From contig CAXXYH010000003.1 in NCBI GenBank assembly GCA_963677925.2, forward strand, positions 1,376,001-1,440,000: 64,000 nt of DNA, written 5' to 3'. The position numbers and the translations under genes are program-made. Shown here in pieces: positions 7,930 through 31,235 of the stretch (the first letter of the stretch is position 1; each line of letters starts with the position of its first letter). Below the pieces are notes generated by a model. The model was not told the origin of the DNA. It did no database searches and saw only the letters and a program-made list of their open reading frames with translations. The stretch comes from Spirochaetia bacterium. GTDB lineage: Bacteria; Spirochaetota; Spirochaetia; UBA9216.

Positions 7930-9216
7930 CTAGTAAATCCCTATAGCAATCATCACCAGATACAGAGCTATATTAATAAACGGCCATCCAAGAAGAAAAT
8001 TAAAAATAGTTTTCCTGTGACCATCATCATCAACACTTGCAACTACAAGTCCACCGCTTCCGGAGAAAGGTGATACTGCTGTAGCCATAGAACCTACAGC
8101 AACAGCTGCAAAGGCTATTCCGGGATTGAAGCCTCCGGCGATTGCCAATGCGGGAACCAGGGCAAGGAAGGTTGTATTTACGACGAATCCGCTTACGAAC
8201 AGACTCATAATACCGGCAAAAAGAGCAAGCATCATTGGAATAATTCCGGTTGGCACACTGGTGGACAGCCAGTTTGATACCATCTCTATTGCGCCGGTCT
8301 TACTTACAATACCAATCAATGTACCCATTCCGCATAATGTGGTAAGGGCTGAAAGGGGAACTTTTTTGAAAGCTTCCTTTTCATCACCAACCTTGAATAA
8401 CGAAAGAAGAACTACTCCTATGAATGCAATCCAGATAAGGTACACACCTCTTGAGAACTTGACTGCAACAGGATTTCCATGTCCCAGCAGTCCTGCCAAA
8501 GGAGCAGCAACAAGAAGAACAACAAAACCGATTATTACAGCAAGGTTAATTCTCTGCTTTTTATTAAAAGGTTCAGGTTTACTAAGCTCTGGAGCCTTGA
8601 TCTTGTAACCTTTAAAGACTATGTAAGCAATTATAAAAATAATTGTATAAAGGAGTGTAATCTGGAAAAGGGCATGGTTTCCAAAATTATGGGCTTCAGC
8701 CTCGGAATGCCCGCCGAAATTCATTATGAGTTCTCTAAGAAAAATACCAGCTGTACTAATAGGGGTGAACCCGCCGGCACTGATTCCTGACACACATGAA
8801 ACAGCAGCGAGGATGTTATTCATACCTGTTACCTTTGCAATGGTAAGCCCGATAGGAATCATCATAACAGTAGCCCCGTCACCGGCCCCTATTCCAGCCA
8901 TAATAAATGAAAGGATGTACAGAACTATAGGAATGGCCCACGGAATATTCCTTACAGAATAAACAACTTTATCAGCAACTTTTTCGAGTGTTCCGTTCAG
9001 AACCGCAAAACTGTAAAAGAGTGTTACAGAAAACAGAAGAAGAAATAGTCTGGTCGGAAAAACACCGACTAATCCTCGGGGTGATTCACCAAGCACAAAG
9101 ACACCGATAATATAGGCAGCGGTTATAGCCCATAAACCTATATTGGTTTTTGTTTTTGTTCCAATCACAATAACGGCTACTATTGCAATCAAGCTGATAA
9201 TGATGATAGTCATCAA
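7930..9216 (-). CDS. SLC13/MatC-like (di)carboxylate carrier
   Basis: N-terminal KTNIGLWAI..FP..LFLLLFSVTLFYSFAVLNGTLE; C-terminal SPFSGSGG; multi-TM. Confidence 0.8.
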   Translation of the reverse strand: MMTIIIISLIAIVAVIVIGTKTKTNIGLWAITAAYIIGVFVLGESPRGLVGVFPTRLFLLLFSVTLFYSFAVLNGTLEKVADKVVYSVRNIPWAIPIVLYILSFIMAGIGAGDGATVMMIPIGLTIAKVTGMNNILAAVSCVSGISAGGFTPISTAGIFLRELIMNFGGHSEAEAHNFGNHALFQITLLYTIIFIIAYIVFKGYKIKAPELSKPEPFNKKQRINLAVIIGFVVLLVAAPLAGLLGHGNPVAVKFSRGVYLIWIAFIGVVLLSLFKVGDEKEAFKKVPLSALTTLCGMGTLIGIVSKTGAIEMVSNWLSTSVPTGIIPMMLALFAGIMSLFVSGFVVNTTFLALVPALAIAGGFNPGIAFAAVAVGSMATAVSPFSGSGGLVVASVDDDGHRKTIFNFLLGWPFINIALYLVMIAIGIY

Positions 9217-9269
9217 TACCTCCTATTTATTTTTTTACCGGCTTCTCCTCCGGCATTAATTTCAATGAT

Positions 9270-11660
9270 TTATACCTCAGCAAAAGCTGTTCGCTCTATA
9301 ATTTCATTCTGCATGTCATTTCCAAGGGCTGTAAAATATGCACTATATCCGGCAACCCTTACTACAAGATCCTGATGCTCATCTGGAGCAGCCTGAGCTT
9401 CAATCAGATCATCCTTGTTTACAATATTGAACTGAATGTGCTTTCCGCCCTGTGAAAAATATGTTTTGATAAGCGAACCAAGCTTTAAAAGATCAGCCCG
9501 GCTTTTCAATGCCGACGGATGAAACTTCATATTCAACAGAGTTGCCTGATAAGTGTCCTGATTAATCTTCATTGCACTCTTAAGTACACCAGTCGGCCCG
9601 TTCTTATCCATACCGTGATTAGGCGACATACTTCCATCAGCAAGTATTTCACCTCGCTTACGTCCGTCCGGGGTGGCGCCGGTAAGGGCTCCGCCCGGCT
9701 GATGGGCTGTGATTGATATTGCAGTTGCTATACCCTTTCCCCCGAAAAAGGATCTTAAGGAAACGAGTTTCTTTTCAAATTTCTCATAAACTTCAGCTGC
9801 AAGTTCATCTACATAGTCAACTCCGTTACCGTACTTTGGAACTGCCAGAAAATCTTTCTGCATTTCTTCAAAACCGACCCAGTCTGAATCGAGAGCTTTG
9901 ACAAGCTCATCCATTGAGTATTTCTTGTCTTCATAGACGAGTTTTTTAACTGCAGCAAGTGAATCAGCAACATTGATACCTCCAACAGGACAGAGGGAGA
10001 GGCTGTTTTCAAACGGAATGGAACGCCTTAAAATATCCTTTCCCTCTTTGACTGCATCAAACATCAATGAAGATCTGAATGGATCAGGAAATAAGTTCTG
10101 CTCGGCTCTTAGTTCAATATTACATTTCTCAACCCCGAGCTCAATGAAGTAATCCATCTGTTTATAGAAGGCATTCTTAAATGCTTCAAAATCTGACATC
10201 TGTGTAACATCACCTGTTTTAATTCCGACAGTTTCATTGGTACCCTTATTAAATCCGTTGTGCATGAATATATCGAAGGCCAACGCAACAACGATAAATC
10301 CGAAAGTTGCAGTCCTTGATTTTCCCGGAATAGCACCATCGAGACAGCCGCATACAATATAATTACGGGCGTCTTCTATGGGCAAACCATGATACTGGTG
10401 AAAGAAATTTATGTAAGATTTATCTCCGATGAAGGCGGGCATTCCAATTCCGGCTTTTACAACTTCAAGGGCCTTTACCATCAGCTCATCAGGTGTTTTA
10501 TCATGTACTCTCAGAGTGAGTGTATGATGAGGTATTTTAGTTTCCATTGCGGCATCAAGCAGAAGATATGTAAGCTTGTTGCTGGCATCATTTCCATCTT
10601 TATCAACACCCCCGATAATAAAATTATGCCATTTAGCCATACCGGCATTTTTTTTCCTGTTCTGCTGACCTGAAACTCGATTTAGTTTGATATCCTTGAT
10701 ACGCAGAAGTTCTAAAAGTTCAATTACTTCCTCATCAGTAGTAATTCCTTTTTCAATATCATTTTTATAAAATGGATACATGTACTGATCAAAACGTCCG
10801 GCTGCAGCTGTAGTTGCAGGATTTATCATTAGAAAGGTGAACCAGAAGCACTGTATCGCTTCAAAAAAAGTTTCAGCAGGTTTGGCAGGTACTTTCGAAC
10901 AGGCTTTAGAAATTCGCATTAGTTCAAGTTTTCTTTCAGGGTCATTTTCTTCCATAGCCATCTCGGCTGCAAGTTCCGAATACCTCTGTGCAAGCCTTAT
11001 GAGGGCTTTATGAACAATAATAACAGAATTAAGAAAATCGACAGCTTCCTGATCAGGAGTTTCGCTAGCTTCCTGAATTTTCAAAGCTTCTTCGCACTCT
11101 GCAATTAAACTTAATGAACCTTCGTTCAGCATCTTTTCATAATCAACTCCAATCAGAAAGAACCCCGGGCCAAGGCCGAGACCGGACTGAGCATAACCAC
11201 CGCCGCTGCCTTCAGCCCCTTTCCAGGGAGGAAGCATTACTCCTGATTTCATGAAAGGCCATAGTTGCTCGCTTTTCATAAATTCAGCACCCATGGCTGA
11301 AATTAGTGTTTCACTGCTGAATTTTTCATTAATTTTCTGTATTTCATCTTCATCTGCAGGATTGATTATGTAATTTTCATTTTTTAATGATTCAATTTCA
11401 TCCGGCGTCCACGTACCATATTCATAATCAATCTCAAGGCCAAAGGGTTTACTTGCCCCTGCTCCCGCAAAAAGTTCATCATCTTCAATAAAAATAGTTA
11501 TTTTTTCAAGAATATTTTTTATAATAGCCGCGCGTCGAAGTACGCTGGGCTGCCCTTCAGTAGCTGAAAGAGTCTGTGTAGCTATTTTAAATTTCTCAAT
11601 ACAAAGAGGGTACTTTTCTACCTTCAGTGTATCTAAAAGCCGTTCAATTCTTGGTGTCAT
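9270..11660 (-). CDS. Glycyl radical enzyme (PFL-like superfamily), reaction unknown
   Basis: 796 aa; C-terminal LVVRVAGYSAYF glycyl loop (Gly771); GRFDQYMYPFY; ATPDGR; Cys loop YIVCGCLDG (Cys439). Confidence 0.95.
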   Translation of the reverse strand: MTPRIERLLDTLKVEKYPLCIEKFKIATQTLSATEGQPSVLRRAAIIKNILEKITIFIEDDELFAGAGASKPFGLEIDYEYGTWTPDEIESLKNENYIINPADEDEIQKINEKFSSETLISAMGAEFMKSEQLWPFMKSGVMLPPWKGAEGSGGGYAQSGLGLGPGFFLIGVDYEKMLNEGSLSLIAECEEALKIQEASETPDQEAVDFLNSVIIVHKALIRLAQRYSELAAEMAMEENDPERKLELMRISKACSKVPAKPAETFFEAIQCFWFTFLMINPATTAAAGRFDQYMYPFYKNDIEKGITTDEEVIELLELLRIKDIKLNRVSGQQNRKKNAGMAKWHNFIIGGVDKDGNDASNKLTYLLLDAAMETKIPHHTLTLRVHDKTPDELMVKALEVVKAGIGMPAFIGDKSYINFFHQYHGLPIEDARNYIVCGCLDGAIPGKSRTATFGFIVVALAFDIFMHNGFNKGTNETVGIKTGDVTQMSDFEAFKNAFYKQMDYFIELGVEKCNIELRAEQNLFPDPFRSSLMFDAVKEGKDILRRSIPFENSLSLCPVGGINVADSLAAVKKLVYEDKKYSMDELVKALDSDWVGFEEMQKDFLAVPKYGNGVDYVDELAAEVYEKFEKKLVSLRSFFGGKGIATAISITAHQPGGALTGATPDGRKRGEILADGSMSPNHGMDKNGPTGVLKSAMKINQDTYQATLLNMKFHPSALKSRADLLKLGSLIKTYFSQGGKHIQFNIVNKDDLIEAQAAPDEHQDLVVRVAGYSAYFTALGNDMQNEIIERTAFAEV

Positions 11661-11713
11661 TTTTGCCTCCGTCTAATCCAAATATATCAGCATAATTTAA
11701 TAATCTGTATATA

Positions 11714-11729
11714 TGCAATTTATGTGCCA
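11714..11729 (-). promoter_or_regulatory. sigma54 -24/-12 promoter of the GRE operon
   Basis: TGGCAC-ATAAA-TTGCA, an exact consensus match. Confidence 0.9.
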
Positions 11730-11888
11730 TATATAAACTTCTTTTTCCATTTTAGACTTTTTCTTAAATATTCTAATTCTGATTAAACTTTGGTGCATTT
11801 TTAACGTATTTATATATTTTTTTAGTTTTATGTTCAGAATAAGGCCTCCAAATTCCACATTAAGTATATTAACGTTACAGGACACAAA

Positions 11889-11918
11889 GTTACACTTTGT
11901 AACCTTTTGCAACGTTCT
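11889..11918. promoter_or_regulatory. Putative upstream activator sequence (three 10-bp repeats)
   Basis: GTTACACTTT GTAACCTTTT GCAACGTTCT; matches 29700..29729 in sequence and spacing. Confidence 0.65.
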
Positions 11919-11993
11919 TATAAAACAATAAAAACTACATTAATCTGCTGCATTAGCCTTAATAAATATCAAAAGTATAATTCTGCCTGAAAT

Positions 11994-12020
11994 TGTTTCA
12001 TATTGTTACAGACTGTCAGT
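11994..12020. promoter_or_regulatory. Putative upstream activator sequence for the + strand sigma54 promoter
   Basis: TGTTTCA-TAT-TGTTACA-GAC-TGTCAGT, the same 10-bp-period motif in inverted orientation. Confidence 0.6.
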
Positions 12021-12118
12021 ACTTTCAATAAGAATGTTTCACTGCATAAAGACACATTCTAACTATGTTCGCGAACTTACTGCGAAGGAAAAGGAATTTC
12101 CCTGTATTTAACAGGAAT

Positions 12119-12134
12119 TGGCATATATTTTGCA
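12119..12134 (+). promoter_or_regulatory. sigma54 -24/-12 promoter of the binding-protein gene
   Basis: TGGCAT-ATATT-TTGCA. Confidence 0.88.
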
Positions 12135-12156
12135 ATTCTCATTCCGGAGGTTAAAT

Positions 12157-13746
12157 ATGAAAAATTTTCATATCAAAAAATCAGTTCCAAAAGTATTAAT
12201 TGCAGCAGGTCTACTTGTTATGCTGCTGGCGGTATCACAGTTTTCATCCTGTGTCACCACGGACGCTTCAGCAAAACAGCTGAATGTAGCTTTGTCTACT
12301 CTGGCCGAAGAAAACTTTCTTCCCTGGAACGGAAGTACAGTCAGAAAGCCCTATCTGGATTGTATTTACGAATACATCGCGTATATCGATCCGGAAACAT
12401 CAGAACCGATCCCAGGCCTTGCTGAAAGCTGGAAATACTCTGATGACGGCCGGACTGTAACCCTGTTCATCAGAAAAGGAATTCAATTCCAGCAAGGCTG
12501 GGGAGAGTTTTCAGCTGAAGATGTTAAGTTTTCCATCGACAGAATGCTTGATCCTTCCGCTGTAGGCGGCCAGGCTTCAGCATTAAGAATGGCCGTTGCT
12601 TCGGTTGAAGCTGCGGAGAAGTATAAAGCCGTTATTACCCTGAAGGCTCCGGATCCTGTATTTGTTCAGGGTTATCTTGGAAATGGTGTAGCTATTCCCA
12701 TGGCATGTAAAAAATACATTGAAGAGATGGGAGAAGACTATGCGAATGATAACCCGGTAGGAACCGGAGCTTACACTCTGGGCGGTCATGTTGAAGGTAC
12801 ATCCGTTTCTGTACAAAAAGTCGAAGGAATGGACGAACACTGGCGTGTGAAACCGGAATTTGATACCATCAATTTTCTCGCTGTTTCAGACGAAGCTGAG
12901 CGCGTAGCTATGCTTAAAAATGGAGATATCGATCTTGCTCCGATAAACTGCAGCTCCATTACAGAAGTTGAACAGGCTGGATTGGAGACTGTTTCAATTT
13001 ATCATAATTATACTGCGGTTCTCCGTTTCGGCGGTACCAGCGGCATGTACCCTAACCCTGATGTTCCCTGGGCAAAAAAAGAGGTTCGACAGGCACTTAA
13101 TTATGCTGTAGACAGAGATAAGCTTATCAATGAAGTCCTTAAAGGAGAAGGAGATCCGGCAGGGATTGACCCCGATGCAAATGAGTTTAAAGATATAAAA
13201 GCTTACCCCTACGATCCTGCAAAGGCAAAAGCACTTCTGGCACAGGCCGGGTATCCTGATGGATTTGATGTAACCATCATGGCTGCGGCAACCATACCTG
13301 GTGCAGAACTCCCTATGCTTTCCGAAATGGTAGCAGCCCAATGGAATGAAATAGGTATTCGCGCAGAAGTGAAAGAAATCACAAATGCAGAAATTAGAGA
13401 AGCATGGACTACCGGAAAATATACCGATGTAATATGGACCCACAGAACTTACCCATGTTCAAACCTTGTTACTTCATTCCTTGTAATGAATTCCACCAGA
13501 AGCCCTCATGGTTCATTCTCCAATGAGGACACTGACAAAAGGATTATGAGTATTGCAATGGAAACTGATCCGGATCTTAGACTTTCCAAAATCCAGGAGA
13601 TGGCACAGTGGCTTAATGATGAGGGAGCAAGTATATATCTTGTTCATGGCAATGAGCCTTATGGAATAAGCAGCAAGGTAGGAAACTGGCCGGCTATCAA
13701 TCAGAATGTTACTAATTTTGATCAGATTTCTTTCGGTTCCAGATAA
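12157..13746 (+). CDS. Family 5 (DppA/OppA/NikA-like) ABC solute-binding lipoprotein
   Basis: PGLAESW..SDDG, FSAEDVKFS, PVGTGAY, VRQALNYAVDR, YDPAKAKALLAQAGY; lipobox-like FSSC; start moved to ATG 12157 (GGAGG RBS) because the ORF-track start overlaps the sigma54 promoter. Confidence 0.9.
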   Translation: MKNFHIKKSVPKVLIAAGLLVMLLAVSQFSSCVTTDASAKQLNVALSTLAEENFLPWNGSTVRKPYLDCIYEYIAYIDPETSEPIPGLAESWKYSDDGRTVTLFIRKGIQFQQGWGEFSAEDVKFSIDRMLDPSAVGGQASALRMAVASVEAAEKYKAVITLKAPDPVFVQGYLGNGVAIPMACKKYIEEMGEDYANDNPVGTGAYTLGGHVEGTSVSVQKVEGMDEHWRVKPEFDTINFLAVSDEAERVAMLKNGDIDLAPINCSSITEVEQAGLETVSIYHNYTAVLRFGGTSGMYPNPDVPWAKKEVRQALNYAVDRDKLINEVLKGEGDPAGIDPDANEFKDIKAYPYDPAKAKALLAQAGYPDGFDVTIMAAATIPGAELPMLSEMVAAQWNEIGIRAEVKEITNAEIREAWTTGKYTDVIWTHRTYPCSNLVTSFLVMNSTRSPHGSFSNEDTDKRIMSIAMETDPDLRLSKIQEMAQWLNDEGASIYLVHGNEPYGISSKVGNWPAINQNVTNFDQISFGSR

Positions 13747-13762
13747 TTCAAAACTGAATATC

Positions 13763-13797
13763 TCCCGATGCCCTGAAGGACTTCCAGGGCATCGGGA
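13763..13797. terminator. Bidirectional terminator hairpin between convergent genes
   Basis: TCCCGATGCCCTG-N9-CAGGGCATCGGGA 13-bp stem. Confidence 0.75.
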
Positions 13798-13832
13798 ATA
13801 GTTATTTGAATAAAATAAATTGCTGATATATT

Positions 13833-15647
13833 TCAGACAGGAACTTTAGATAATAAATTTGAGAATAGACCGGAGTTCAAAGCATGATTAATAGTCTGCA
13901 ATGCTTTTATGTGCTCATCCGGATTTTGTTTTGGAGATATGATGAGAAAAACCAGGTCAACATGTTTCTCGGGTTTTATATGCCACAAGACAGGCTTTTC
14001 CAGTTTACAGCCAATGGCGACAGCATCATCGACAAATTCGGATCTGCAGTGAGGCATTGCAATCCCTTCTATCAAAACCGTAGAACCCAGCTGTTCCCTT
14101 TCGATAACAGCATTCATTGTGTAGTTTACATCTTCAACATAACCATGTTCAAAAAGTGATGTTATGAGTTGGTTTATAATTTGAGTTTTAGACATTGAAT
14201 TCTGAACTTCCATTCTCTGCATAGGAACCGGCATCAACCGATCCAAATTAAGAGGCGGTTGAGGAAGGGTTTGTTTTTTAACAGCTTCTGCTTCACCGGC
14301 GGTCCACTGCTTCCATCTTATCAAAGTCCGTTCAGACAAAAAAGCGCCTACAAGTTCAAACATAACCAATGCCGGGACTATGGTATTGAAAACCATAGCA
14401 CCTTCTTCACCGCCCAGTACACTCGCTACAAGAATTGTTTCAACTGCTGCCATACCCGCCTGAGGGAGCATCAGCTTGGGAATACTTGCCGTAATTTTTT
14501 GGTCCTGTCCTGTCAGTTTGCAGCCGATCCAGTTTCCTCCCAGCTTTGAAACTGTCCTCAGTCCGAAGTATCCAAGAACCAGAAATAATGTATCAAGCGA
14601 GAAGGTTTCTATCTGAACACTTGCCCCTATAATACCGAAGAACAGCAGATTAAAAACCGGCATAACATCTTTCAGTTTAAGTGAATCAAACAGCGCATTT
14701 GTATGAAAATTTGCTACCAGGATTCCGGCAAGCACAGCAACAATGAGGAAAGGCAGATCAAAATGCATTGCTACTGAAATGACAATCGCAATAGCACCTA
14801 TGATTATCAAAAGTATTTCAACAGATGGAGTCGGATGATCTGAAAGTATTGATGACAGCAGAGAATTATTATCGTCACCATTCAGATCTTCATGCTCATG
14901 CTTATAATTTCTGATTGTGAAGCGCAGTATGATAAAAAGAACAACGCCAAGAAGCACTGCAAGCCCCATCTCGAGGGATACATCTGCAAAGATATGCACA
15001 GGCGAAATGTGTTCCCCTGCTTTAATACCTGTTGCAACACCAAGCATGATAGAAAACACTATAACTTCTAAAACATCATCAAGAACAACAATATTTGCAA
15101 GTATGTTTTTAAGCGGACCTTCTATCTGGAAACGCGACATTAATATAAAGGTAAGCGCAGGTGCTGTTGCAATACCGATTGAACCTATCAGCATGGCAAC
15201 CACCCATGAAGCTCTGAATATAAAATGAAACCCAAGTGAAATAACCATCCAAGTCAGGACCGCCTGGATCAGGCAAATGATAGTTGCTTTTACGCCTACC
15301 TGTTTTAGACGATTCCAGTGAAGCTCCTCTCCAAGAGAAAAAGCCACTATTCCAAGAAAAAGGAAAACAAAAAAATGTGACCCTTCCATTATGAGTGCGT
15401 AATCATGAAAACGGTTCTCGAAGAAATTAACGGCAGGACCCATTATGGTTAATGATGCTATTCCCGGATGACCGGACAGCCATCTACTGACTAGTAAAAG
15501 AAAATGAGGTCCCACCAGTACACCGCCTATAATCTGACCGATAACTTCACCTACATGAATTTTACGAGCTATTCTTCCGCCGAAATAAGCAGCCAGAACA
15601 AGCAGGCCCAATTCAAAAATCTGTAATTCAATATGTGAAATGCTGAT
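13833..15647 (-). CDS. Cation:proton antiporter fused to a C-terminal PTS EIIA(Ntr/Fru)-type domain
   Basis: CPA TM domain (ATAPA, VVLDD, LPQAGMA); C-terminal REQLGST..GIAMPHCR. Start probably ATC 15647 behind AGGAG (ORF track uses TTG 15611). Confidence 0.85.
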   Translation of the reverse strand: MSISHIELQIFELGLLVLAAYFGGRIARKIHVGEVIGQIIGGVLVGPHFLLLVSRWLSGHPGIASLTIMGPAVNFFENRFHDYALIMEGSHFFVFLFLGIVAFSLGEELHWNRLKQVGVKATIICLIQAVLTWMVISLGFHFIFRASWVVAMLIGSIGIATAPALTFILMSRFQIEGPLKNILANIVVLDDVLEVIVFSIMLGVATGIKAGEHISPVHIFADVSLEMGLAVLLGVVLFIILRFTIRNYKHEHEDLNGDDNNSLLSSILSDHPTPSVEILLIIIGAIAIVISVAMHFDLPFLIVAVLAGILVANFHTNALFDSLKLKDVMPVFNLLFFGIIGASVQIETFSLDTLFLVLGYFGLRTVSKLGGNWIGCKLTGQDQKITASIPKLMLPQAGMAAVETILVASVLGGEEGAMVFNTIVPALVMFELVGAFLSERTLIRWKQWTAGEAEAVKKQTLPQPPLNLDRLMPVPMQRMEVQNSMSKTQIINQLITSLFEHGYVEDVNYTMNAVIEREQLGSTVLIEGIAMPHCRSEFVDDAVAIGCKLEKPVLWHIKPEKHVDLVFLIISPKQNPDEHIKALQTINHALNSGLFSNLLSKVPV

Positions 15648-19374: not shown

Positions 19375-19375
19375 C

Positions 19376-22706: not shown

Positions 22707-23870
22707 CTAATTAATCAGACTGAAAATTCCTGCGGCACCCATACCTCCACCTATGCACATAGAGATGAGAGCATACTTGCCGTTATTGTCTTTAAGATAA
22801 TCCAGAGCTTTTTCGGTCAGAATGGTTCCCGTAGCACCCATAGGGTGACCAAGTGCCATGGCTCCGCCGTAAGGATTCACCTTTTCAGGATTCATCCCGA
22901 GTTCTCTAGTACAGGCTAATGCCTGAGAAGCAAAAGCCTCGTTAAGCTCGATTACATCCATCTGCTCCAGACTGAGACCAGTTTTTTTAAGAAGTTTAGG
23001 AATTGCATAAATCGGCCCCATTCCCATCAAGCTGGGGTCACAGCCTGCAACGGCAAAACCTTCAAACTTTGCTATTGGTTTCATTCCAAGCTCTTCCGCT
23101 TTCTTTCTTTCCATCACAACAGCATAGGCAGCAGCATCAGTCATCTGTGATGATGTAGCGGCAGTCACAAGGCCGTTTTCCCTGAATGGTGGATCCATTG
23201 ATGCCATCTTTTCCAGAGAGGTTCTGAGATTTCCTTCAGCGTCAGCAAGTATTCCATCGTCTTCAGAAATCCAGACACCCTGATCATTAGACATAGGAAT
23301 AATACTTGGAGAAAGTTTACCGGCCATCCGGGCTACAGAAGCCCTTCTGTGTGACTCCAAAGCCATCTCTTCCATTTCCGCTCTGGTAATTTTGTATTTA
23401 TCTGCTACTCTTTCTGCGGTTTCTCCCATAGACATTATTGCTGAGGGATAATTCTCTTTTATCCATGGATTAAGATACGGTTCCTGAAAAGGATCAAAGC
23501 AGTCAGTCATAAACTCAGCGCCGCCTGCAACAGCTATGTCATATTCACCGGCAATGATTGCATTTGAAGCAGCAGCTATAGTCTGCAGGCCTGAAGAGCA
23601 GAATCTGTTTACTGTCTGTGCAGGGATTTCTTCCGGCAGCTCTGCCCTATTGACAATAAGCCGGCTTACATTCATATCCATTTCCTTTAAAGGGAATGCA
23701 CAGCCTGTAAGAACATCACCGATTAATTCCGGACTCAACTGTGGAACTTTTTCCAGCACTCCTTTCAAAGTCATTGCTGCATAATTAATTGGATGGGTCT
23801 GACTGAAGCCGCCCTTCCTTGCCCTGCAGCAGGCACTTCTTCCGTATGCTACAATTACAGCTTCTCTCAT
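22707..23870 (-). CDS. Thiolase (acetyl-CoA C-acyltransferase)
   Basis: [37 protein letters not shown]. Confidence 0.95.
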
Positions 23871-23885: not shown

Positions 23886-24737
23886 CTATTTGTAGTCGTA
23901 CCAGCCGCGTCCTGACTTTCTGCCGAAACGCCCGTCTTTAACCATTTCAGTGACAACTTCAGGACAGCTCCAGTCGGTGACCGGAAGACCTTCAAGGGAA
24001 TCACAAACATGAGTGAATGTATCAAGACCCGAAAGATCCATCATTTCGAATGGTCCGAGAGGATGGTTCAAACCGAGTTTCATTGCTGTGTCTATATCTT
24101 CAGCTGTTGCTATTCCGTCCGTATAACAGCGGAGAGCTTCTAGCACGAATGCAAAAAGACAGCGGTTAACAATAAAACCGGGTTCATCTTTTTTACATTC
24201 CACGGCTGTTTTCTTCATACCGGCGGCAGTCTCCTTAACCGTTTGAATTGTTTCATCACTGGTCGCTGTGCACCTGATCAACTCAACAAGTTTCATTACA
24301 GCCACTGGAAAGAAGAAATGCATTCCTACACAGCGTTCCTTGTGGTCACATCCTGACATTATTTCTTCAACCGACATCGAGGATGTGTTGGTGCAGAATA
24401 TGGCATCAGGCCTGCAGACTTCAGATAAGCCGTTGAAGATTTCCTGTTTCAGTTCAAGAACTTCGGGGGCTGCTTCAATAATGAGGTCACATTTACTCAT
24501 GTCAGATATTTCAGTAGTGCAGCTTATTCGTTCTAAAGTTTTTTCTGCTTCATCAGCATCCTGTTTACCGGCCGCTACTCTTTTCTCCATGGCTGCTTTC
24601 ATTTTCTGTACAGCATTACTGCAGAATTCAATTTTTATATCTCGTAAAACTACGTCGTAACCGGCCGAGGCTGCTATCTGAGCAATACCTGCGCCCATTT
24701 GTCCCGCTCCGATTACACCAATTGTTTTCACTATCAT
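23886..24737 (-). CDS. hbd: 3-hydroxyacyl-CoA (3-hydroxybutyryl-CoA-type) dehydrogenase
   Basis: GAGQMGAG, TNTSS, GMHFF.P, PGFIVNR, HPLGPF. Confidence 0.9.
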   Translation of the reverse strand: MIVKTIGVIGAGQMGAGIAQIAASAGYDVVLRDIKIEFCSNAVQKMKAAMEKRVAAGKQDADEAEKTLERISCTTEISDMSKCDLIIEAAPEVLELKQEIFNGLSEVCRPDAIFCTNTSSMSVEEIMSGCDHKERCVGMHFFFPVAVMKLVELIRCTATSDETIQTVKETAAGMKKTAVECKKDEPGFIVNRCLFAFVLEALRCYTDGIATAEDIDTAMKLGLNHPLGPFEMMDLSGLDTFTHVCDSLEGLPVTDWSCPEVVTEMVKDGRFGRKSGRGWYDYK

Positions 24738-24749: not shown

Positions 24750-25664
24750 TTAATTATGCTGAAAGATCGGTTTACGTTTTTCGAGCATAGCCCTCATACC
24801 CTCTTTCTGGTCATGGGTTTTAAAAAGCTCTGTAAACTCTACCGTCTCTCTTTCTTTACCGTAGGTCATGCCCTCTTTCACTGAAAAGTTGATTGTATTC
24901 TTTGCCGCGGCAACAGCTTTACCCGGCATCTGAATCAGTCTTGCAGCAACAGCTGAGGCCTTCTGACAAATAGCATCAGCCTCTGCAGCGGCAGCAGCAG
25001 ACTCACATTCACTGTAAAGAAGTTTCATCTTTTCTAAATTGCCGTTATTTTCACGTTTTGCAGATTCGAGTGAAGCCTTGGCTTCCGCAGACGCCTTATC
25101 CAGCTCGGAACTTCCTGGCTCGAACCAGTTTAATAACCCCATATCAAAAGCAGCTTTACCGCTGATTTTTTCATTAAGTAGAATTAATTGCTTAGCAATA
25201 GAAGGTCCCAGCAATGAAGCCGCACGAACGCAGCCGTTGGCTCCCGGGATTACACCAAGTCCGACTTCCGGAAACGACAATAAAGTTCTCGGACCGCCAA
25301 CCCTGAAATCACATGCCAAAGCAAGCTCAAAACCTCCTCCGAATGCAAAACCGCAAATTGCAGCTATAGTCGGAATCTGAAGATTTTCAATTTCATCATT
25401 TATTTTTATTGCAAGCTGACATACTTCGTGAGCCTTTACAGGATCTGCATCAACCATATCGGTGATATCAGCTCCGGCAGCAAAGGCTCTTGTTCCTGCT
25501 CCGCTTATGACAACAGCTCTTATTGATGAATCCTTTTTTATTTCCTGAATTGTGGAATAAAGAAGTTGATTCAATTCAAGATTCAGTGCATTGAGCTGAT
25601 GTGGTCGATTCAATAATATTTCTGCAATACCATCTGCTACTTCAAGCAGGACTAATGGCTCCAT
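24750..25664 (-). CDS. Enoyl-CoA hydratase/isomerase (crotonase family) with internal insertion
   Basis: LNRP..LNAL, AFAAGADI, GGGFELALACD, PEVGLGVIPG; extra Ala/Glu-rich segment. Confidence 0.9.
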   Translation of the reverse strand: MEPLVLLEVADGIAEILLNRPHQLNALNLELNQLLYSTIQEIKKDSSIRAVVISGAGTRAFAAGADITDMVDADPVKAHEVCQLAIKINDEIENLQIPTIAAICGFAFGGGFELALACDFRVGGPRTLLSFPEVGLGVIPGANGCVRAASLLGPSIAKQLILLNEKISGKAAFDMGLLNWFEPGSSELDKASAEAKASLESAKRENNGNLEKMKLLYSECESAAAAAEADAICQKASAVAARLIQMPGKAVAAAKNTINFSVKEGMTYGKERETVEFTELFKTHDQKEGMRAMLEKRKPIFQHN

Positions 25665-25720
25665 TCCTAACCTCAGTGTATTAATATTTAATTTTCAATT
25701 ATTTTTAAATTCAGAAATAA

Positions 25721-25746
25721 AGGCGGAGCCGGTTTACGGTCCGCCT
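25721..25746 (-). terminator. Intra-operon hairpin/terminator after the FadH-like gene
   Basis: AGGCGGA...TCCGCCT stem followed by TTTATTT on the minus strand. Confidence 0.6.
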
Positions 25747-25760
25747 ATTAATTTAATGTT

Positions 25761-27776
25761 CTAAGCTTTCATAACTGCTTCACGGGCATCAGCTATTGCA
25801 TCCATAGCTTTACGCGGCTTGCTGGAGTCGCCGATTTGAACAAGAACATTTGGAATCATAGTTTTTAATTTTTCTGCGAGATCATTTTCCGGCCTGGAAC
25901 CTATTGCAAGAACAACTGTGTCAGCAGGAATATTCTTGGTTGTTCCATCTTCTGTATTTTCTACTGTCACAGAATCTTTCTGTATCGAAACTACTTTTGA
26001 GTTTGTATGTCTCCATACTTTGAAGCGGCTTAGATTGCTCATAAATATCCACTTTGTTGAAGCACCGATATCTGCACCTATTTTCTTCTGCATTTCTACT
26101 ATCGCTACTTTTTTGCTTCCCTGAGTAATAAGTTCATATAATCTTTCAGGTGTTTCGGCTTTATAAAGCATAAGGAATTTCAAAACCTCAGCAGAGATAG
26201 TACCCTCTTCAGCAAGCATCAAGGCAGTTTCAACACCTACAGCACCGCCTCCGACAACAACTACATTCTTACCGGTGTTAACTTTTCCCCTTAAGACATC
26301 CCAGGCTGATACTACATTTGCACCTTCTTCGGTAGGAAACTTCGGAATTATTGGTGCGGCACCTGTGGCAATAACTACACGTTTAAAATATCCGCTTACG
26401 ACAGCTGCGTTAATTTCTTCTGCAATAGCTTCTTTGTTAAACTGAAATGAAACCCCGGCATCAAGACATTCTTCATACTGATTAACCGGAAGTTCGGCAA
26501 AGGCTTCTCTTCCGGGTGCTGCAGCTACCATATCCATCTGTCCGCCGAAAGTGCTTTTTCGTTCCCAGACTGTCACAGTAGATCCAGCCTTGGCAGCCCG
26601 CAGAGCGTATTCCATACCTGCGACTCCGGCTCCGATAACAAGTGTAGGTTCCGGAGTGTGATTATTTTCATCCATCTCTCTGCCTGCATCACTATTGGCA
26701 AGACAGCACAGAGGAGCGTTGGCAAAAATATTATCCATACAGCCCTGATTACATCCAACACATTGTCTGACAAGTTCAGGATGACCGACAGCCATCTTAT
26801 TTACCATTTCCGGGTCAGCAATAAATGCACGGCAGAATCCGATAAAGTCAGCATCGCCACGATCAAGGATTGCTGATGCGGTTTCAAAATTCATTCTGTT
26901 ACATGCATACACCGGCACTGAGACCTGCTCTTTAACCCTTTTTGCAAGGTAAGCGTATGCGCCGTTTGGTACATCCATAGTTACCTGCGGGACTGGAGTT
27001 TCATGCCATCCGCCGGTTATATTAAGAGCATCAACACCAAGCTTCTCAAGTTCTTTAGCAACACGGATACAATCATCATTATCATTTCCATTGCGGACAT
27101 AGTCGTTTCCGGCAAGTCTTACAGCAATAGGATAATCAGGTCCGACAGCATTTCTGACAGCCTGGAAAATTTCTCTAAGGAAAGTCATTCTTCCATCAAG
27201 GAATCCGCCGTATTTATCAGTTCTGAAGTTTGTTGCGGATGAAAGGAACTGTGCAATCAAATACCCGGCACTGCCGACAAGCTCGACACCATCAAAGCCG
27301 ACATCTTTTGCTCTCTTGGCTGCATCCGCAAAGTTCTTGATTATTTCTTCAATTTCTTCAATTTCAAGAGCTCTTGTTTTAGAGCGGCTGAATCCACAGA
27401 AAAACTCAGAAGGTGCTACAGGAGTCTCGCCGTTGTAAACGACCGGGTTTGAATAAGCACCTGCATGCCAGAGCTGTGGAAAAACTTTTCCTCCAGCTTC
27501 ATGAATAGCATCCACCAGGTCTTTCATTCCCGGCATGTTTGAATCACTCGAGAGCTGCATTACTCCGGCAGTTGTAACTCTTAAGGGATCTACACCTACC
27601 GCTCCAACAACCATAAGACCGACACCGCCGGCTGCTCTTTTTTTATAAAATTCAATAAGTCTTGGGGTGACATTACCTTCTTTCGTACAGTATGAAAGGT
27701 TAGCAGGGGTCATCACAAAACGGTTTTTCAATTCAAGATTCCCGATTTTACCGGGCTGTAATAAAGATTCGTACAT
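25761..27776 (-). CDS. FadH-like 2,4-dienoyl-CoA reductase / OYE-family FMN-FAD-[4Fe-4S] oxidoreductase
   Basis: QLWHAG, ELVGSAGYLIAQF, GGWHE, CVGCNQGC..C cluster motif, two GxG nucleotide-binding motifs. Confidence 0.88.
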   Translation of the reverse strand: MYESLLQPGKIGNLELKNRFVMTPANLSYCTKEGNVTPRLIEFYKKRAAGGVGLMVVGAVGVDPLRVTTAGVMQLSSDSNMPGMKDLVDAIHEAGGKVFPQLWHAGAYSNPVVYNGETPVAPSEFFCGFSRSKTRALEIEEIEEIIKNFADAAKRAKDVGFDGVELVGSAGYLIAQFLSSATNFRTDKYGGFLDGRMTFLREIFQAVRNAVGPDYPIAVRLAGNDYVRNGNDNDDCIRVAKELEKLGVDALNITGGWHETPVPQVTMDVPNGAYAYLAKRVKEQVSVPVYACNRMNFETASAILDRGDADFIGFCRAFIADPEMVNKMAVGHPELVRQCVGCNQGCMDNIFANAPLCCLANSDAGREMDENNHTPEPTLVIGAGVAGMEYALRAAKAGSTVTVWERKSTFGGQMDMVAAAPGREAFAELPVNQYEECLDAGVSFQFNKEAIAEEINAAVVSGYFKRVVIATGAAPIIPKFPTEEGANVVSAWDVLRGKVNTGKNVVVVGGGAVGVETALMLAEEGTISAEVLKFLMLYKAETPERLYELITQGSKKVAIVEMQKKIGADIGASTKWIFMSNLSRFKVWRHTNSKVVSIQKDSVTVENTEDGTTKNIPADTVVLAIGSRPENDLAEKLKTMIPNVLVQIGDSSKPRKAMDAIADAREAVMKA

Positions 27777-27829
27777 TATATTTCTAAGCTCCTTATTTCT
27801 ATTGGTTTATTTTCAATTCAGACAAATGC

Positions 27830-29407
27830 TTAAAGTGTAAAATCAAAATATTTTGAATCCATCACCTTTACGTCATCAGCTACTTGTGGTGCGAAATCCA
27901 TATTGTCTAAAATATCTTTCTGCAGATCTATTCCAGGTGCAACTTCAGTAAGCAGTAAGCCTTCTGATGTGAGCTTAAAAACACAGCGTTCGGTAATATA
28001 AATTACATCCTGCTCTTTTTCATTTGCAAACTCTCCTGAGAAAGAGATCTGTTCTACATTGCTTACGAATTTTTTAGATGTACCTTCTTTTACAATATTC
28101 AGTTTGCCGTTTTCGAATTTCAGTTCCATATCTTTTCCGTCCATGAAACTTGTAAGAAATACAACCTTATTATTTCCCTGTGTAAGATTAATAAATCCGC
28201 CGACGCCGATAATGATTTTACCGACCTTACTTACTCCAACATCTCCTGAAGGTCCAATCTGGGCCGCACCTACATATACACCGTCAAGGTTTCCCCCGTC
28301 ATAGAAATCAAACATTGAGGGCATTGTGGTAATCATCTGAGCATTTATAGTAGCACCGAAACCGGGAACAGGAAGAGGCACTCCGCCTATCAACCCAACT
28401 TCATTGGTCATGACAATGTTATCCCATTCGCCGCTCTCGGTTGCTATAGTTGAAATAAGTCCGGGTATACCAACACCAAGATTAATAACATCTCCGGTTT
28501 TTATTTCATCGTAAGCTCTTCTTGCTATGATGTACTGATCATATCGTTTTTTATTTCCGGGGATTATCGATACCATTTTCTCAATGTAAGGAACAACTTT
28601 AGCTTCAGGAAGAACACCGTCTCCGCTTAGTGCAGGCTGATTTTTTTCAAACACACACTGCATCTGGTTTGGATTGATTACCAGATAATCCACAACCTTT
28701 CCCGGAAGCTGTACTGTCTTTGCAGAGAATCTCCTTTCAGATCTTCTCTCTACCTGTACTACTACAACACCGCCATTAGCCTTGGTAGCCATAGCGATTT
28801 CTTTTGCATCAACAAATGCGGCTTCATCTGTAAAAGAAATGTTCCCTCTTTCATCAGCTGCAGTTCCAGCGATAAAAGCGATATCAATTTTCGGAGTCGT
28901 GTATTGAAGATATTCCTCACCGTCTACTTCAATAAGCTTTGAAATATCTGCTACAGATTCTGCTTTTTCATTAAGCCTCGCACCATTGTTACGCGGGTCA
29001 ACTGAAGTCTTAAGTCCAACCTGACTTATGATTGCCGGTTTTTTCCCTGCGGCAGCTCTATACAGATGTGAGATAACTCCCTGCGGCAGATTAAATCCTG
29101 CAACTTTATTTTCACCAACCATTCGTGCAAGCGAAGGCAGTGAACTGAACTGTCCCATATATACTGTATCTACAAGTCCCTCGGCATCCTGAAACATTGC
29201 ATCAGTGTACGCACCGGGACGGGCTATCCCTAAAGAAGTAGCTCCCCACAAAGTAAGCCCCTTCGGTGATTTAGTTTCCCTGTAACGATTACCTAGCGAG
29301 GTTGCAAGCAGATCCGGATTACAGACTGTGCAGACGCCATTAATTGAGATAACATCATTGTCGCTTACAAGATTTGCCGCCTCATCGGCTGAAATTATTT
29401 TTGCCAT
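27830..29407 (-). CDS. Family I acyl-CoA:acetate/propionate CoA-transferase (YdiF/Pct-like, fused)
   Basis: NLPQGVISHL.RA, GLKT.VDPR, NLGVGIP, NEVG catalytic Glu region, GGFINL, YITERCVF. Confidence 0.9.
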   Translation of the reverse strand: MAKIISADEAANLVSDNDVISINGVCTVCNPDLLATSLGNRYRETKSPKGLTLWGATSLGIARPGAYTDAMFQDAEGLVDTVYMGQFSSLPSLARMVGENKVAGFNLPQGVISHLYRAAAGKKPAIISQVGLKTSVDPRNNGARLNEKAESVADISKLIEVDGEEYLQYTTPKIDIAFIAGTAADERGNISFTDEAAFVDAKEIAMATKANGGVVVVQVERRSERRFSAKTVQLPGKVVDYLVINPNQMQCVFEKNQPALSGDGVLPEAKVVPYIEKMVSIIPGNKKRYDQYIIARRAYDEIKTGDVINLGVGIPGLISTIATESGEWDNIVMTNEVGLIGGVPLPVPGFGATINAQMITTMPSMFDFYDGGNLDGVYVGAAQIGPSGDVGVSKVGKIIIGVGGFINLTQGNNKVVFLTSFMDGKDMELKFENGKLNIVKEGTSKKFVSNVEQISFSGEFANEKEQDVIYITERCVFKLTSEGLLLTEVAPGIDLQKDILDNMDFAPQVADDVKVMDSKYFDFTL

Positions 29408-29523
29408 AGCACTCTTGTATGAGTGTCCATACAGAACCCATACTTCTCCTTATAATAGAATTCCTGAATTTTAAAATATTCATTTATTGAATCATTTACT
29501 TATCTTCAGGATGGTGCTAATAG

Positions 29524-29539
29524 TGCAATTTATATGCCA
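29524..29539 (-). promoter_or_regulatory. sigma54 -24/-12 promoter of the CoA-pathway operon
   Basis: TGGCAT-ATAAA-TTGCA; 15/16 identical to the GRE promoter. Confidence 0.9.
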
Positions 29540-29699
29540 GTTTTCATTTTGGATTTTAAATGACGAAGGTTTCTTTAATATTTAATATATTTTAATCTGA
29601 TTTTTGTGATTTTAAGGCTTTATTCCTGTTTAAGTTTTTTTATGTATCTTTTTTTTATTTATAAATGTAACATCTGTAATTTTAACACAATAAAGGCGT

Positions 29700-29729
29700 T
29701 TAACATTTTGAAACACTTTGCAACATTAA
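29700..29729. promoter_or_regulatory. Putative upstream activator sequence (three 10-bp repeats)
   Basis: TTAACATTTT GAAACACTTT GCAACATTAA; offset 176 bp from its promoter versus 175 bp at the GRE promoter. Confidence 0.65.
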
Positions 29730-29730
29730 T

Positions 29731-29769
29731 AAAAAAAAGCTTATTGTAAATATTCATTACAATAAGCTT
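29731..29769 (-). terminator. Intrinsic terminator of the enhancer-binding protein gene
   Basis: AAGCTTATTGTAA-N7-TTACAATAAGCTT stem followed by a T run on the minus strand. Confidence 0.75.
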
Positions 29770-29795
29770 CTTGTTTAGCTTTTTTTAGCTTTTTA

Positions 29796-31235
29796 TCACT
29801 TATGAATTAATAAATCTTCAGAATCTTCAGTTTTTAAAAGTTTCCTGTATAACGTAGTTCGTGATATCCCAAGTTTTTCAGCAGCAGCCTTCCTGTTTCC
29901 GTTAGTTTCAACCAATGCTTCAAGTATTTTTTCCCGCTCAATGTGTTTGTATTCATCTATAACTGCACGTTCATCAAAAGAATTATCCGGACTTTCCCGT
30001 CTTCTCACATCCGCCATAATCATATCTTCTCCTATGAGAAGATTTTCAAGCAGTACAGGAGTAATTAAACTTCTTTCCGTAAGAACAACAATTTTTTCAA
30101 TTATATTTCTCAATTCCCTGACATTTCCGGGCCAGGAATAATTCTCGAAATATTTATAAGTATCCTTTGATAACTGAACATATTTATTATACAAGTTATT
30201 TAATATAGCAATGTAATGTTTTGCCAGCGGAATTATGTCTTCTTTCCTCTCACGGAGGGGTGGAATATCAATAAATATTACACCGATTCGGTATAGTAAA
30301 TCTTCCCTGAAAAGATTTTCCCTTACCATCTTTTTTAAATCTTTATTTGTGGCTGCAATAAAACGTACGTTCAGCTCAATTGTTTTAACACCGCCTACTC
30401 TTGTAAATTTCCTGCTTTCAAGGACTCTCAGCAATTTAACCTGAAGATCCATAGGAATATCACCAATCTCATCAAGAAAAACAGTCCCTCCTTCGGCAGA
30501 TTCAAGTAGACCTATATGTCCTGAATTTGATGCACTGGTAAAAGCTCCTTTCTCATAACCAAATAATTCAGACTCCATTAAAGAAGGTGACATTTGAGGA
30601 ATACAGACAGGAACAAAAGGCTTCTCTTTACGGGGGCTGTTTTCGTGAAGAAGTTTGGCAATAATCTCTTTCCCCACTCCCGACTCGCCGGTTATTACAA
30701 CGCTGGCATCAGAAGCAGCTATTTTCATTGTATTCTTAACAATGCGCTTCATTAGTTCATCTTCAAAAACCGGTGTATTGTGTTTTCTAAGAAGATAATC
30801 ATAAAGATATTCATTTGATTTCTGTAAATAGGTCATATTATGCCGAAGTTTATCAACATCTTCCATCAACTCATCAGCAACCATGCAATAAGTAACGACT
30901 GTCTTTACTTTATTATTTTCATCCTTAACCACTTTACTATGCGAGTATACCCATTGGTCGTCTATAGCATGAAAGAGTTCCTTTGAATCTTCTCCAATCC
31001 GGAACGCCTTTTCACTGGCTGAAGAATTGTAATACTTTTCTTTAATTAAATCAGTAGAGCCTTTTCCTTCGACATCTGAGGGATTCAGTCTTAAGTGTTT
31101 AAGAAACTGTTCACTGACACAAAGGAATTTACCATCAGCTCCCCGAACGGTTATAGGTATCATTTCAGATAATTTATTGAGAATCAATTTGTTTATTTCG
31201 TTAATTTCACTTTCAGTCATCCTAAAATAATTCAT
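29796..31235 (-). CDS. sigma54-dependent enhancer-binding protein (PAS-like / AAA+ / Fis HTH)
   Basis: ITGESGVGKE, ESELFGYEKGAFTSA, FLDEIG, FREDLLYR, WPGNVREL, AAEKLGISRTTLYRKL. Confidence 0.95.
   Translation of the reverse strand: MNYFRMTESEINEINKLILNKLSEMIPITVRGADGKFLCVSEQFLKHLRLNPSDVEGKGSTDLIKEKYYNSSASEKAFRIGEDSKELFHAIDDQWVYSHSKVVKDENNKVKTVVTYCMVADELMEDVDKLRHNMTYLQKSNEYLYDYLLRKHNTPVFEDELMKRIVKNTMKIAASDASVVITGESGVGKEIIAKLLHENSPRKEKPFVPVCIPQMSPSLMESELFGYEKGAFTSASNSGHIGLLESAEGGTVFLDEIGDIPMDLQVKLLRVLESRKFTRVGGVKTIELNVRFIAATNKDLKKMVRENLFREDLLYRIGVIFIDIPPLRERKEDIIPLAKHYIAILNNLYNKYVQLSKDTYKYFENYSWPGNVRELRNIIEKIVVLTERSLITPVLLENLLIGEDMIMADVRRRESPDNSFDERAVIDEYKHIEREKILEALVETNGNRKAAAEKLGISRTTLYRKLLKTEDSEDLLIHK

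Follow-up and report, generated by a model that had tools for sequence, protein, structure and literature searches.

Organization of the locus and its promoters

We analyzed a 64-kb stretch of DNA from a Spirochaetia bacterium (the window, in which all positions are given unless they carry the genome prefix C3 or C4). Region 7930-31235 of this window brings together an atypical glycyl radical enzyme (GRE), a candidate radical 2-hydroxyacyl-CoA dehydratase and a set of beta-oxidation genes, which a first-pass annotation made from the sequence alone had combined into a single anaerobic pathway under sigma-54 control. Gene calls across the region were based on the open reading frame listing together with Pfam and NCBIfam, and every gene of the earlier list was confirmed. 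The proposed division into three transcription units also holds, as these are bounded by hairpins: a GRE with a carrier, a solute-binding lipoprotein, and a CoA operon of roughly 13 genes.

The first unit, on the minus strand, consists of a GRE of the Cys-X-Asp (CXD) clade (9270-11660; PF02901 PFL-like, 513 bits; PF01228 Gly_radical, 108 bits) co-transcribed with a MatC/CitMHS carrier recognized with Pfam (carrier 1, 7930-9216), and ends at a terminator hairpin with a U-tract (7868-7887). The second unit, on the plus strand, encodes an orphan family 5 solute-binding protein (SBP), assigned to SBP_bac_5 by Pfam (12157-13746), which has a signal peptide and a lipobox cysteine in ...QFSSC. The third unit, again on the minus strand, opens with a fused alpha-beta family I CoA-transferase resembling YdiF and FadX (27830-29407; CoA_trans). 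It continues with a FadH/NCR-type Fe-S flavoenzyme composed of OYE and Pyr_redox_2 domains (25761-27776), an enoyl-CoA hydratase (ECH, 24750-25664), a 3-hydroxyacyl-CoA dehydrogenase (HBD, 23886-24737; 3HCDH), a thiolase (22707-23870), a CaiB family III CoA-transferase as sixth gene (21396-22637), a BcrAD_BadFG activator ATPase (20560-21366) and two HGD-D subunits (19376-20548 and 18106-19407; both PF06050). Downstream lie a MatC_N/CitMHS carrier (carrier 2, 16759-18039), an MBL-fold hydrolase (15658-16659) and a Na/H exchanger fused to a PtsN-like EIIA2 domain of the phosphotransferase system (13833-15611). The third unit probably runs through carrier 2 and the hydrolase to the exchanger and ends at a 16-bp stem (−30.9 kcal/mol, z = −6.5) at about 13770-13800, between the convergent ends of the SBP and exchanger genes. 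An A/U-rich 13-bp hairpin (−17.6 kcal/mol) lacking a U-tract separates the second dehydratase subunit from carrier 2 and may attenuate transcription or stabilize the mRNA; the other intergenic gaps within the operon measure 11-99 bp. A 19-codon upstream open reading frame with a strong ribosome-binding site, AAGGAGA, was also observed at 29382-29441 on the minus strand; it begins 34 nt ahead of the start annotated for the family I CoA-transferase and overlaps that gene in another frame. It may encode a leader peptide, serve translational coupling or indicate a mis-assigned start.

Each unit is preceded by a −24/−12 promoter located by pattern search, namely TGGCACATAAATTGCA for the GRE-carrier unit (11714-11729, minus strand), TGGCATATATTTTGCA for the SBP unit (12119-12134, plus strand) and TGGCATATAAATTGCA for the CoA operon (29524-29539, minus strand). 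When the 64-kb window was searched with the consensus of the three sites, TGGCAYATAWWTTGCA, allowing at most one mismatch, exactly three matches were returned, all of them intergenic and correctly oriented, against a mean of 0.05 in shuffled sequences (none of 100 shuffles reached three). The near identity of the promoters claimed in the first-pass annotation is thus well founded. A generic −24/−12 consensus with two mismatches yielded 28 sites for 32 expected, that is, no enrichment, so that the promoter signal resides in the near-exact sites. On the scale of the 5.04-Mb genome, the looser pattern TGGCAY-N5-TTGCW occurs 22 times, three of them within the window, and just four of the 22 sites have an ATAWWT spacer, again including the three of the window. 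The fourth such site, at C3:1294584 outside the window, is identical to the SBP promoter and precedes a gene for another SBP5-like lipoprotein (27% identical); the GTTRCAAAGT motif was not seen in the 280 bases upstream of it.

A common upstream repeat had also been reported for all three units. Two regulatory regions, those of the GRE unit and the CoA operon, do share a 12-mer, GTTRCAAAGTGT, but only these two. Its copies, at 11892-11903 and 29713-29724 (both minus strand), have the same orientation and lie 174 bp and 185 bp, respectively, upstream of the −24 element, distances that are one helical turn apart. The copy upstream of the CoA operon, GTTGCAAAGTGT, is a candidate activator-binding motif. 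The copy upstream of the GRE, GTTACAAAGTGT, is part of a strand-neutral palindrome, ACAAAGT-N3-ACTTTGT (11884-11903), which sits between the divergent GRE and SBP promoters and occurs only once in the genome. The 10-mer core of the repeat has 19 copies genome-wide on both strands, and, the pattern having been derived from these two regions, its statistics are post hoc.

The single enhancer-binding protein described beside the operons is confirmed at 29796-31235 (minus strand, 479 aa; Sigma54_activat, 2.4e-62; HTH_8). It has an AAA+ domain with a GAFTSA loop, where the canonical loop of sigma-54 activators is GAFTGA, and a helix-turn-helix of the Fis type. Its N-terminus resembles a PAS domain, as had been stated, but at E = 0.028 for PAS_9, below the cut-off, this is a weak call. 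The gene has a sigma-70-like promoter of its own (31279-31307) and is followed by a hairpin with a U-tract (29734-29772). The elements of a sigma-54 regulon are therefore all present: promoters with the GG and GC dinucleotides, an activator with an AAA+ sigma-54 domain, and an rpoN gene in the genome. PrdR-type sigma-54 activators control Stickland operons in Clostridia. The protein described here aligns with PrdR over residues 2-466 and likewise stands beside catabolic operons with −24/−12 promoters, but it scores 351.8 bits for a cut-off of 795 and its targets differ. Adjacency and the shared upstream 12-mer suggest that this activator would control all three promoters, and the promoters and the motif together point to co-regulation of the three units within this one genome.

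A glycyl radical enzyme of the Cys-X-Asp clade

The GRE displays the PFL-like barrel and the glycine radical domain of its superfamily, with a RVAGYSAYF loop bearing Gly771, and its cysteine loop reads C437-G-C439-L-D441. All characterized GRE eliminases and isomerases keep a Cys-X-Glu (CXE) motif according to sections 5.6 and 5.7 of PMC13450708, which also describes Glu505 in HPAD and Glu502 in IAD; the enzyme studied here has Cys439-Leu-Asp441 instead. Its best solved relative is the B12-independent glycerol dehydratase (1r8w, 3.3e-140), and the HMMER alignment with that structure places Asp opposite Glu435 and Leu opposite His164, the residue that protonates the leaving hydroxyl. The enzyme thus shares with the 1,2-eliminases and isomerases the PFL-like fold, the RVAGY glycine loop and the cysteine loop, but differs from them in its Cys-Leu-Asp, in its Leu at the His164 position and in having no adjacent activase. 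It also differs from pyruvate formate-lyase, with C-G-C rather than C-C and 127 bits against TIGR01255 for a cut-off of 994. No NCBIfam equivalog reached its cut-off for this protein, the best being HpsG (521 of 1000 bits) and HypD (463 of 1100). Together these features justify the earlier description of the GRE as atypical. Three specific assignments were considered and rejected: an X-succinate synthase, given the weaker match (TutD, 3.2e-93) and the lack of small subunits; a diol dehydratase, given the missing equivalents of His164 and Glu435; and an arylacetate decarboxylase, given scores below cut-offs and no aromatic context.

The aspartate is not a peculiarity of this protein. GC[LVM]D is found in all of the 120 best homologues (55-86% identity), in four paralogues of the same genome (44-74%) and in the three GREs of a further locus, L009, whereas CXE prevails in more distant relatives (eight of nine at 30-37% identity). 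Among the 149 nearest cluster representatives, the second position after the catalytic cysteine is Glu in 63, Asp in 20 and another residue in 66 (Ser in 12, His in nine, Gln in nine, Gly in seven, the rest rarer), and Asp occupies it in 15 of the 20 nearest. The idea that CXD is universal above 43% identity was discarded because of a representative, P0289, that has GCIE at 48% identity; several other near neighbours have Tyr, Pro, Gly or Asn. Much of the uncharacterized diversity of GREs therefore lacks CXE. The Cys-X-Asp GREs are an uncharacterized clade, large and spread over Bacillota, Desulfobacterota and other anaerobes, that takes in about 17 of the 20 nearest clusters at 50% identity, and the aspartate is a character of the clade. 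Searches of broader collections added little: a scan of genome contigs gave just three GRE relatives, and the protein-cluster search returned generic GRE clusters only.

The source genome encodes seven GREs and two activases. No match to the activase model TIGR02494 was found in the window; two genes exceed the cut-off elsewhere, at C3:709331 and C3:1773658. The former belongs to a four-gene operon at C3:708294-713956 that encodes a MerR regulator, an activase (360 bits), a GRE and a carrier, and whose last two products (C3:710229-713956) are 74% and 84% identical to the GRE and carrier 1 of the window, respectively. The same four-gene module is present in two other genomes, G001 and G197. A third, G022, has the activase, GRE and carrier, and a fourth, G010, has the MerR regulator, activase and GRE followed by a second GRE. 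In a sample of 401 genomes of the class, GRE matches at E ≤ 1e-180 were obtained in five, namely these four, with orthologues at 64-73% identity, and the source genome itself (G000); homologues of carrier 1 follow the GRE in G001, G197 and G022. Since the window GRE has neither a MerR gene nor an activase and is preceded by a sigma-54 promoter, it looks like a diverged duplicate recruited to a new control. In terms of its gene content, the unit is a rewired duplicate of the MerR-activase-GRE-carrier operon, and its lack of an activase implies activation in trans.

Other operons of CXD paralogues pair the GRE with TctABC, an MmgE/PrpD-family and a PGA_cap-family protein, with a TRAP transporter, a DHDPS-family protein and a rhamnosidase, or with a carrier related to carrier 2 (50%). 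At C4:1353302-1361717 (L091) and in L009, the CXD paralogues (55%) are accompanied by TctABC or MatC, together with MmgE/PrpD-family and PGA_cap-family proteins, and L009 contains three GRE-carrier pairs within 22 kb. Every CXD context that we examined includes a carboxylate transporter, often with MmgE/PrpD, which argues that the substrates of these enzymes are probably carboxylic acids, and more specifically polycarboxylic or sugar acids. Apart from the succinate synthases with their fumarate, PMC13450708 lists no GRE acting on a dicarboxylate.

The dehydratase-like block and the CoA operon

Class III CoA-transferase, activator and two-subunit dehydratase form the layout of fldAIBC in Clostridium sporogenes and hadAIBC in Clostridioides difficile. 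The first-pass annotation had recognized this layout in the window, and the order CaiB, activator, subunit, subunit is indeed that of both systems; the transferase at the head of the operon, however, belongs to family I, and the class III enzyme is gene 6. As in fldAIBC and hadAIBC, a single activator ATPase, which passes TIGR00241 (261 bits for a cut-off of 125), accompanies two homologous HGD-D subunits (PF06050, 213 and 192 bits; 21% identical to each other). On the other hand, with the HadB and HadC models the subunits reach no more than 143 and 158 bits, far below the cut-offs of 750 and 700. The island also lacks an acyl-CoA dehydrogenase (ACAD), an electron-transfer flavoprotein (ETF) and a 2-hydroxyacid dehydrogenase, its operon adds FadH-like, ECH, HBD and thiolase genes, and its CaiB resembles dicarboxylate transferases. 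The closest solved relatives of this CaiB are SUGCT (9br6, 5.9e-61), YfdE, Frc and BbsF. The 2-hydroxyacyl-CoA dehydratase family is described in PMC11574389.

Alternatively, the two subunits and the ATPase could form an ATP-dependent reductase of the class I benzoyl-CoA type which, together with the FadH-like enzyme, ECH, HBD and thiolase, would degrade an aromatic or alicyclic (di)carboxylate through reduction of the ring and a cleavage resembling beta-oxidation. In favour of this idea, one subunit is nearer to BzdN (4.3e-35) than to HadC (2.7e-30), for the other the values are 1.5e-27 with MbdO and 8.7e-32 with HadB, and 2-naphthoyl-CoA reductase is nearly as good a match to the flavoenzyme as FadH is. 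Class I benzoyl-CoA reductases have two different ATPase subunits (BcrA/D or BzdP/Q), though, and only one ATPase gene is present here. It fails the corresponding models (BzdQ, 177 of 380 bits; BcrA, 157 of 578; BcrD, 135 of 313) while passing that of the dehydratase activases, the gene order is fldAIBC-like, and genes for a ferredoxin, a second ATPase, a ring-cleaving hydrolase or an aromatic-acid CoA ligase are absent from the cluster. The ATPase and the gene order thus favour a 2-hydroxyacyl-CoA dehydratase over a reductase for the two-subunit enzyme, and we consider aromatic or alicyclic degradation quite unlikely.

The dehydratase block is unique in the genome and rare beyond it. No other copy was found in 40 relatives at E ≤ 1e-30 (one of 41 with the source genome), nor in 400 genomes of the class or 400 of the phylum at E ≤ 1e-60 (one of 401 in each case, again the source genome). 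A search of 5.8 billion proteins gave 43 matches, nearly all unnamed metagenome proteins, the best being 68% identical. A profile scan of metagenome contigs provided 66 loci, all of which were screened with tblastn at E ≤ 1e-30 and 12 of which were inspected in detail. Among the latter, CaiB is adjacent in nine, the activator ATPase in eight, and an SBP5-like protein is present in three. The closest locus, L025 (65% identity), encodes CaiB, both subunits, a homologue of carrier 2 (54%) and the activator ATPase, and SBP5/ABC transporters occur at L026-L028. Another locus, L030, contains rpoN, a sigma-54 activator gene, the two subunits (44-47%), a TRAP transporter, the activator ATPase, CaiB, a class II fumarase and malic enzyme. 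A CoA-dependent radical route that dehydrates D-malate to fumarate would be consistent with this gene order; to our knowledge, no such reaction has been described. In L028 (1-13524), an SBP5 and a URO-D-like gene are followed by a GRE (28% identity, CXE), CaiB, the activator ATPase, both subunits, a second CaiB and ABC permeases, which makes it an independent case of a GRE beside this dehydratase clade. The conserved core is therefore CaiB, activator ATPase, two subunits and a carboxylate transporter. What is particular to the window is that this core is fused with beta-oxidation genes and has a CXD GRE nearby. Judged by its sequence relatives, this dehydratase clade is rare and appears to be partnered by dicarboxylate-type CoA-transferases and transporters.

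The combination of genes around this core was correctly described in the first-pass annotation: domain searches with Pfam on the proteins of the region detected no ACAD or ETF, the two ACAD genes of the genome lying elsewhere (C4:1735094 and C3:1569414), and a FadH-like enzyme is found with ECH, HBD and thiolase. The FadH-like protein matches FadH (1ps9, 1.4e-97) and 2-naphthoyl-CoA reductase (6qkg, 2.3e-94) and combines the OYE/FMN domain, the FAD/NAD(P) domain and an Fe-S motif, C339-X2-C-X3-C-X12-C, that agrees with the CX2CX3CX11-13C given for FadH-type flavoenzymes in PMC11574389. With this complete three-part architecture it resembles the FadH/NCR-type flavoenzymes, but its NCBIfam scores are about half of the cut-offs (BaiCD, 433 of 825). 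The genome has 12 FadH-like genes. The closest homologues of the island enzyme (61-72%) are unnamed metagenome proteins, and nothing above 44% identity was found in the 400 class genomes, with two candidates scored per genome. The family I CoA-transferase is closest to YdiF of E. coli (2ahu, 5.3e-107) and scores 347 bits, below cut-off, with the FadX model.

Paralogues of several of these proteins reside in another cluster of the genome, at C3:742-768 kb, including HBD (62-64%), the FadH-like enzyme (42%), the MBL-fold hydrolase (44%), ECH and thiolase. In its wider limits (C3:741875-771999), the cluster holds four FadH-like genes, two thiolases, three HBD-like genes, an ECH and the MBL paralogue. 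Some 30-55 kb separate it from the MerR-activase-GRE-carrier operon, and the same two loci are about 45 kb apart in G001, which belongs to the same genus. The island of the window was not found in G001, where DNA synteny gave only paralogue matches of 63-73% identity; the two genomes are too diverged for the island borders to be fixed from this comparison.

The carriers of the two catabolic operons had been called paralogous. Both are indeed of the MatC/CitMHS type, but they are distant, with 28% identity. The fusion of the Na/H exchanger to EIIA2 suggests a phosphorylation-controlled ion exchange linked to the carriers.

Interpretation of the island

The earlier proposal that the GRE and the CoA operon constitute one conserved pathway is not sustained. 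The first-pass annotation had made co-occurrence of GRE homologues with the CoA operon its test, and in everything that we searched they never co-occur outside this genome: the GRE orthologues of the four other genomes stand without the dehydratase, and a CXD-clade GRE accompanies none of the 66 dehydratase loci, one of which has an unrelated CXE-type GRE. One pathway joining two radical chemistries is thus not supported by the comparative evidence. The more robust novelties would be the CXD GRE clade coupled to carboxylate transporters, and the rare dehydratase or reductase clade coupled to dicarboxylate-type CoA-transferases. Within the literature searched, from which most subscription journals fall outside, no characterized pathway with the combination seen here was found, in agreement with what had been said before. 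Queries joining GRE with 2-hydroxyacyl-CoA dehydratase returned reviews or unrelated work only, those joining GRE with dicarboxylate only unrelated work, and those joining GRE with PrpD, or the dehydratase with thiolase and sigma-54, nothing. The dehydratase with dienoyl-CoA reductase led to one review, and a study of Fe-S flavoenzyme clusters (PMC7371122) makes no mention of glycyl, thiolase or CoA-transferase.

Benzylsuccinate synthase with the bbs beta-oxidation operon offers a partial parallel: there too a GRE is followed by a CaiB-type transferase, a hydratase, a dehydrogenase and a thiolase acting on a dicarboxylate, and BbsF is among the solved relatives of the island CaiB. The island GRE is nevertheless no X-succinate synthase (TutD at 3.2e-93 against 3.3e-140 for the glycerol dehydratase). 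Small subunits and an ACAD equivalent to BbsG are missing, and a radical dehydratase is present.

Our preferred interpretation, which we hold tentatively and with slightly less than even confidence, is that the region is a strain-specific, modular, accessory sigma-54 island for the fermentation of a single carboxylic acid or a small set of related ones, probably (hydroxy)dicarboxylates. A 2-hydroxy acid would enter through carrier 2 and receive CoA from the SUGCT-like CaiB transferase, and the ATP-primed Fe-S enzyme would dehydrate the ester by way of a ketyl radical to a 2-enoyl- or dienoyl-CoA. Given the absence of ACAD and ETF, the FadH-like flavoenzyme could reduce part of this product with NAD(P)H and serve as the electron sink. 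ECH, HBD and thiolase would hydrate, oxidize and cleave the rest, with NADH, acetyl-CoA and ATP as the gain, and the family I transferase and the MBL-fold hydrolase would release or exchange the products. With the enoyl-CoA partly reduced and partly oxidized, the operon could be redox-balanced by itself, in analogy to known enoyl-CoA dismutations. Succinyl-CoA is the donor of SUGCT-like transferases; as an illustration, a C6 acid like 2-hydroxyadipate would be broken down to acetyl-CoA and succinyl-CoA. Two distant carriers and two unrelated CoA-transferases suggest two entry points, and the GRE might convert a second, related carboxylate delivered by carrier 1, its product passing through the family I transferase into the enoyl-CoA pool. 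The leaning towards dicarboxylates draws on the CaiB relatives, the MatC_N/CitMHS carriers, the carrier of L025, the TRAP, fumarase and malic enzyme genes of L030, the SBP5/ABC transporters of L026-L028, and the MatC, TctABC, TRAP and MmgE/PrpD genes beside the GRE paralogues. We are least sure that the GRE is metabolically connected to the CoA operon: our confidence in this link is lower than in the interpretation as a whole, the GRE step being its weakest point.

Several observations weigh against this interpretation. Its modules are separate elsewhere, as the GRE orthologues without dehydratase illustrate, and of all 66 dehydratase loci, one has a GRE, of a different clade, two have a FadH-like gene, three a thiolase, one an HBD and three an activator-like gene. 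The contigs that encode the closest homologues of HgdA (63-68%), the FadH-like enzyme (68-72%) and the GRE (86%) differ in length; that P0012 and L028 both measure 13524 bp was put down to chance, P0012 being 29% identical to the L028 GRE. The subunits appear about equidistant from HadBC and from BzdNO/MbdNO. The cluster encodes no 2-hydroxyacid dehydrogenase, and hence no step by which a keto acid, plausible as the GRE product, could reach the dehydratase. Moreover, because 21 activator-like genes are encoded in the genome, we infer rather than observe the assignment of the three promoters to the adjacent activator.

A rival interpretation has two metabolically independent modules, in which the GRE and carrier 1 would act on one substrate, as in the parent operon under MerR control, and the CoA operon on an unrelated 2-hydroxy or unsaturated acid. 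They would be neighbours in a variable region with a regulator, or just a promoter type, in common, and no intermediates would pass between them. In its favour, the carriers keep to their respective enzymes, carrier 1 to the GRE operon and carrier 2 to the dehydratase in L025, and the modules never co-occur elsewhere among the genomes and loci searched. Yet the GRE copy has lost its MerR gene and activase and gained a sigma-54 promoter with the spacer and the 12-mer of the CoA operon, as if recruited, and we therefore find independence of the modules possible but on the unlikely side. An entirely different role for the CoA operon would be synthetic. Thiolase, HBD, ECH and the FadH-like enzyme, the last as an enoyl-CoA reductase, amount to a full reverse beta-oxidation set without ACAD or ETF, which would extend an acyl-CoA into a longer (di)carboxylate for export by the carriers. 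A 2-hydroxyacyl-CoA dehydratase has no role in elongation, however, and control by a sigma-54 activator, a binding lipoprotein and carriers of the uptake type are usual features of catabolic regulons, which makes a synthetic operon very improbable. The most far-reaching form of the accessory-island interpretation goes beyond what we favour: the Cys-X-Asp GREs would constitute a new functional class acting on hydroxy or unsaturated di- and tricarboxylic acids, here joined with the dehydratase to feed a two-entry, ACAD-free, redox-balanced dicarboxylate fermentation to acetyl-CoA and a shorter dicarboxylate such as succinate. We regard this full version as doubtful.

Outside the island, a DUF362 protein of 496 aa is encoded downstream of the GRE-carrier terminator (6206-7696, minus strand), and the same genome has a paralogue of it with 53% identity at a distance of about 10 kb (C3:1372065-1373411). 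Positions 36451-57583 encode a choloylglycine-hydrolase-family protein, an aldo/keto reductase, an aminotransferase, an alpha-L-rhamnosidase, a GH3 glycosidase, a sugar-type binding protein and an AraC-type response regulator. From the gene content of the rest of the window, the source organism looks like a degrader of plant glycosides.

If the accessory-island interpretation is correct, the CXD GRE clade would gain a testable substrate class and a screening set of hydroxy- and unsaturated di- and tricarboxylates, and the product of a 2-hydroxyacyl-CoA dehydratase would be seen to proceed to beta-oxidative cleavage and not only to reduction by ACAD and ETF. The GRE unit would exemplify how a resident operon is duplicated, stripped of its activase and regulator, and joined to a sigma-54 regulon. 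Even if the model is wrong, the locus still points to two enzyme clades that have no characterized member.

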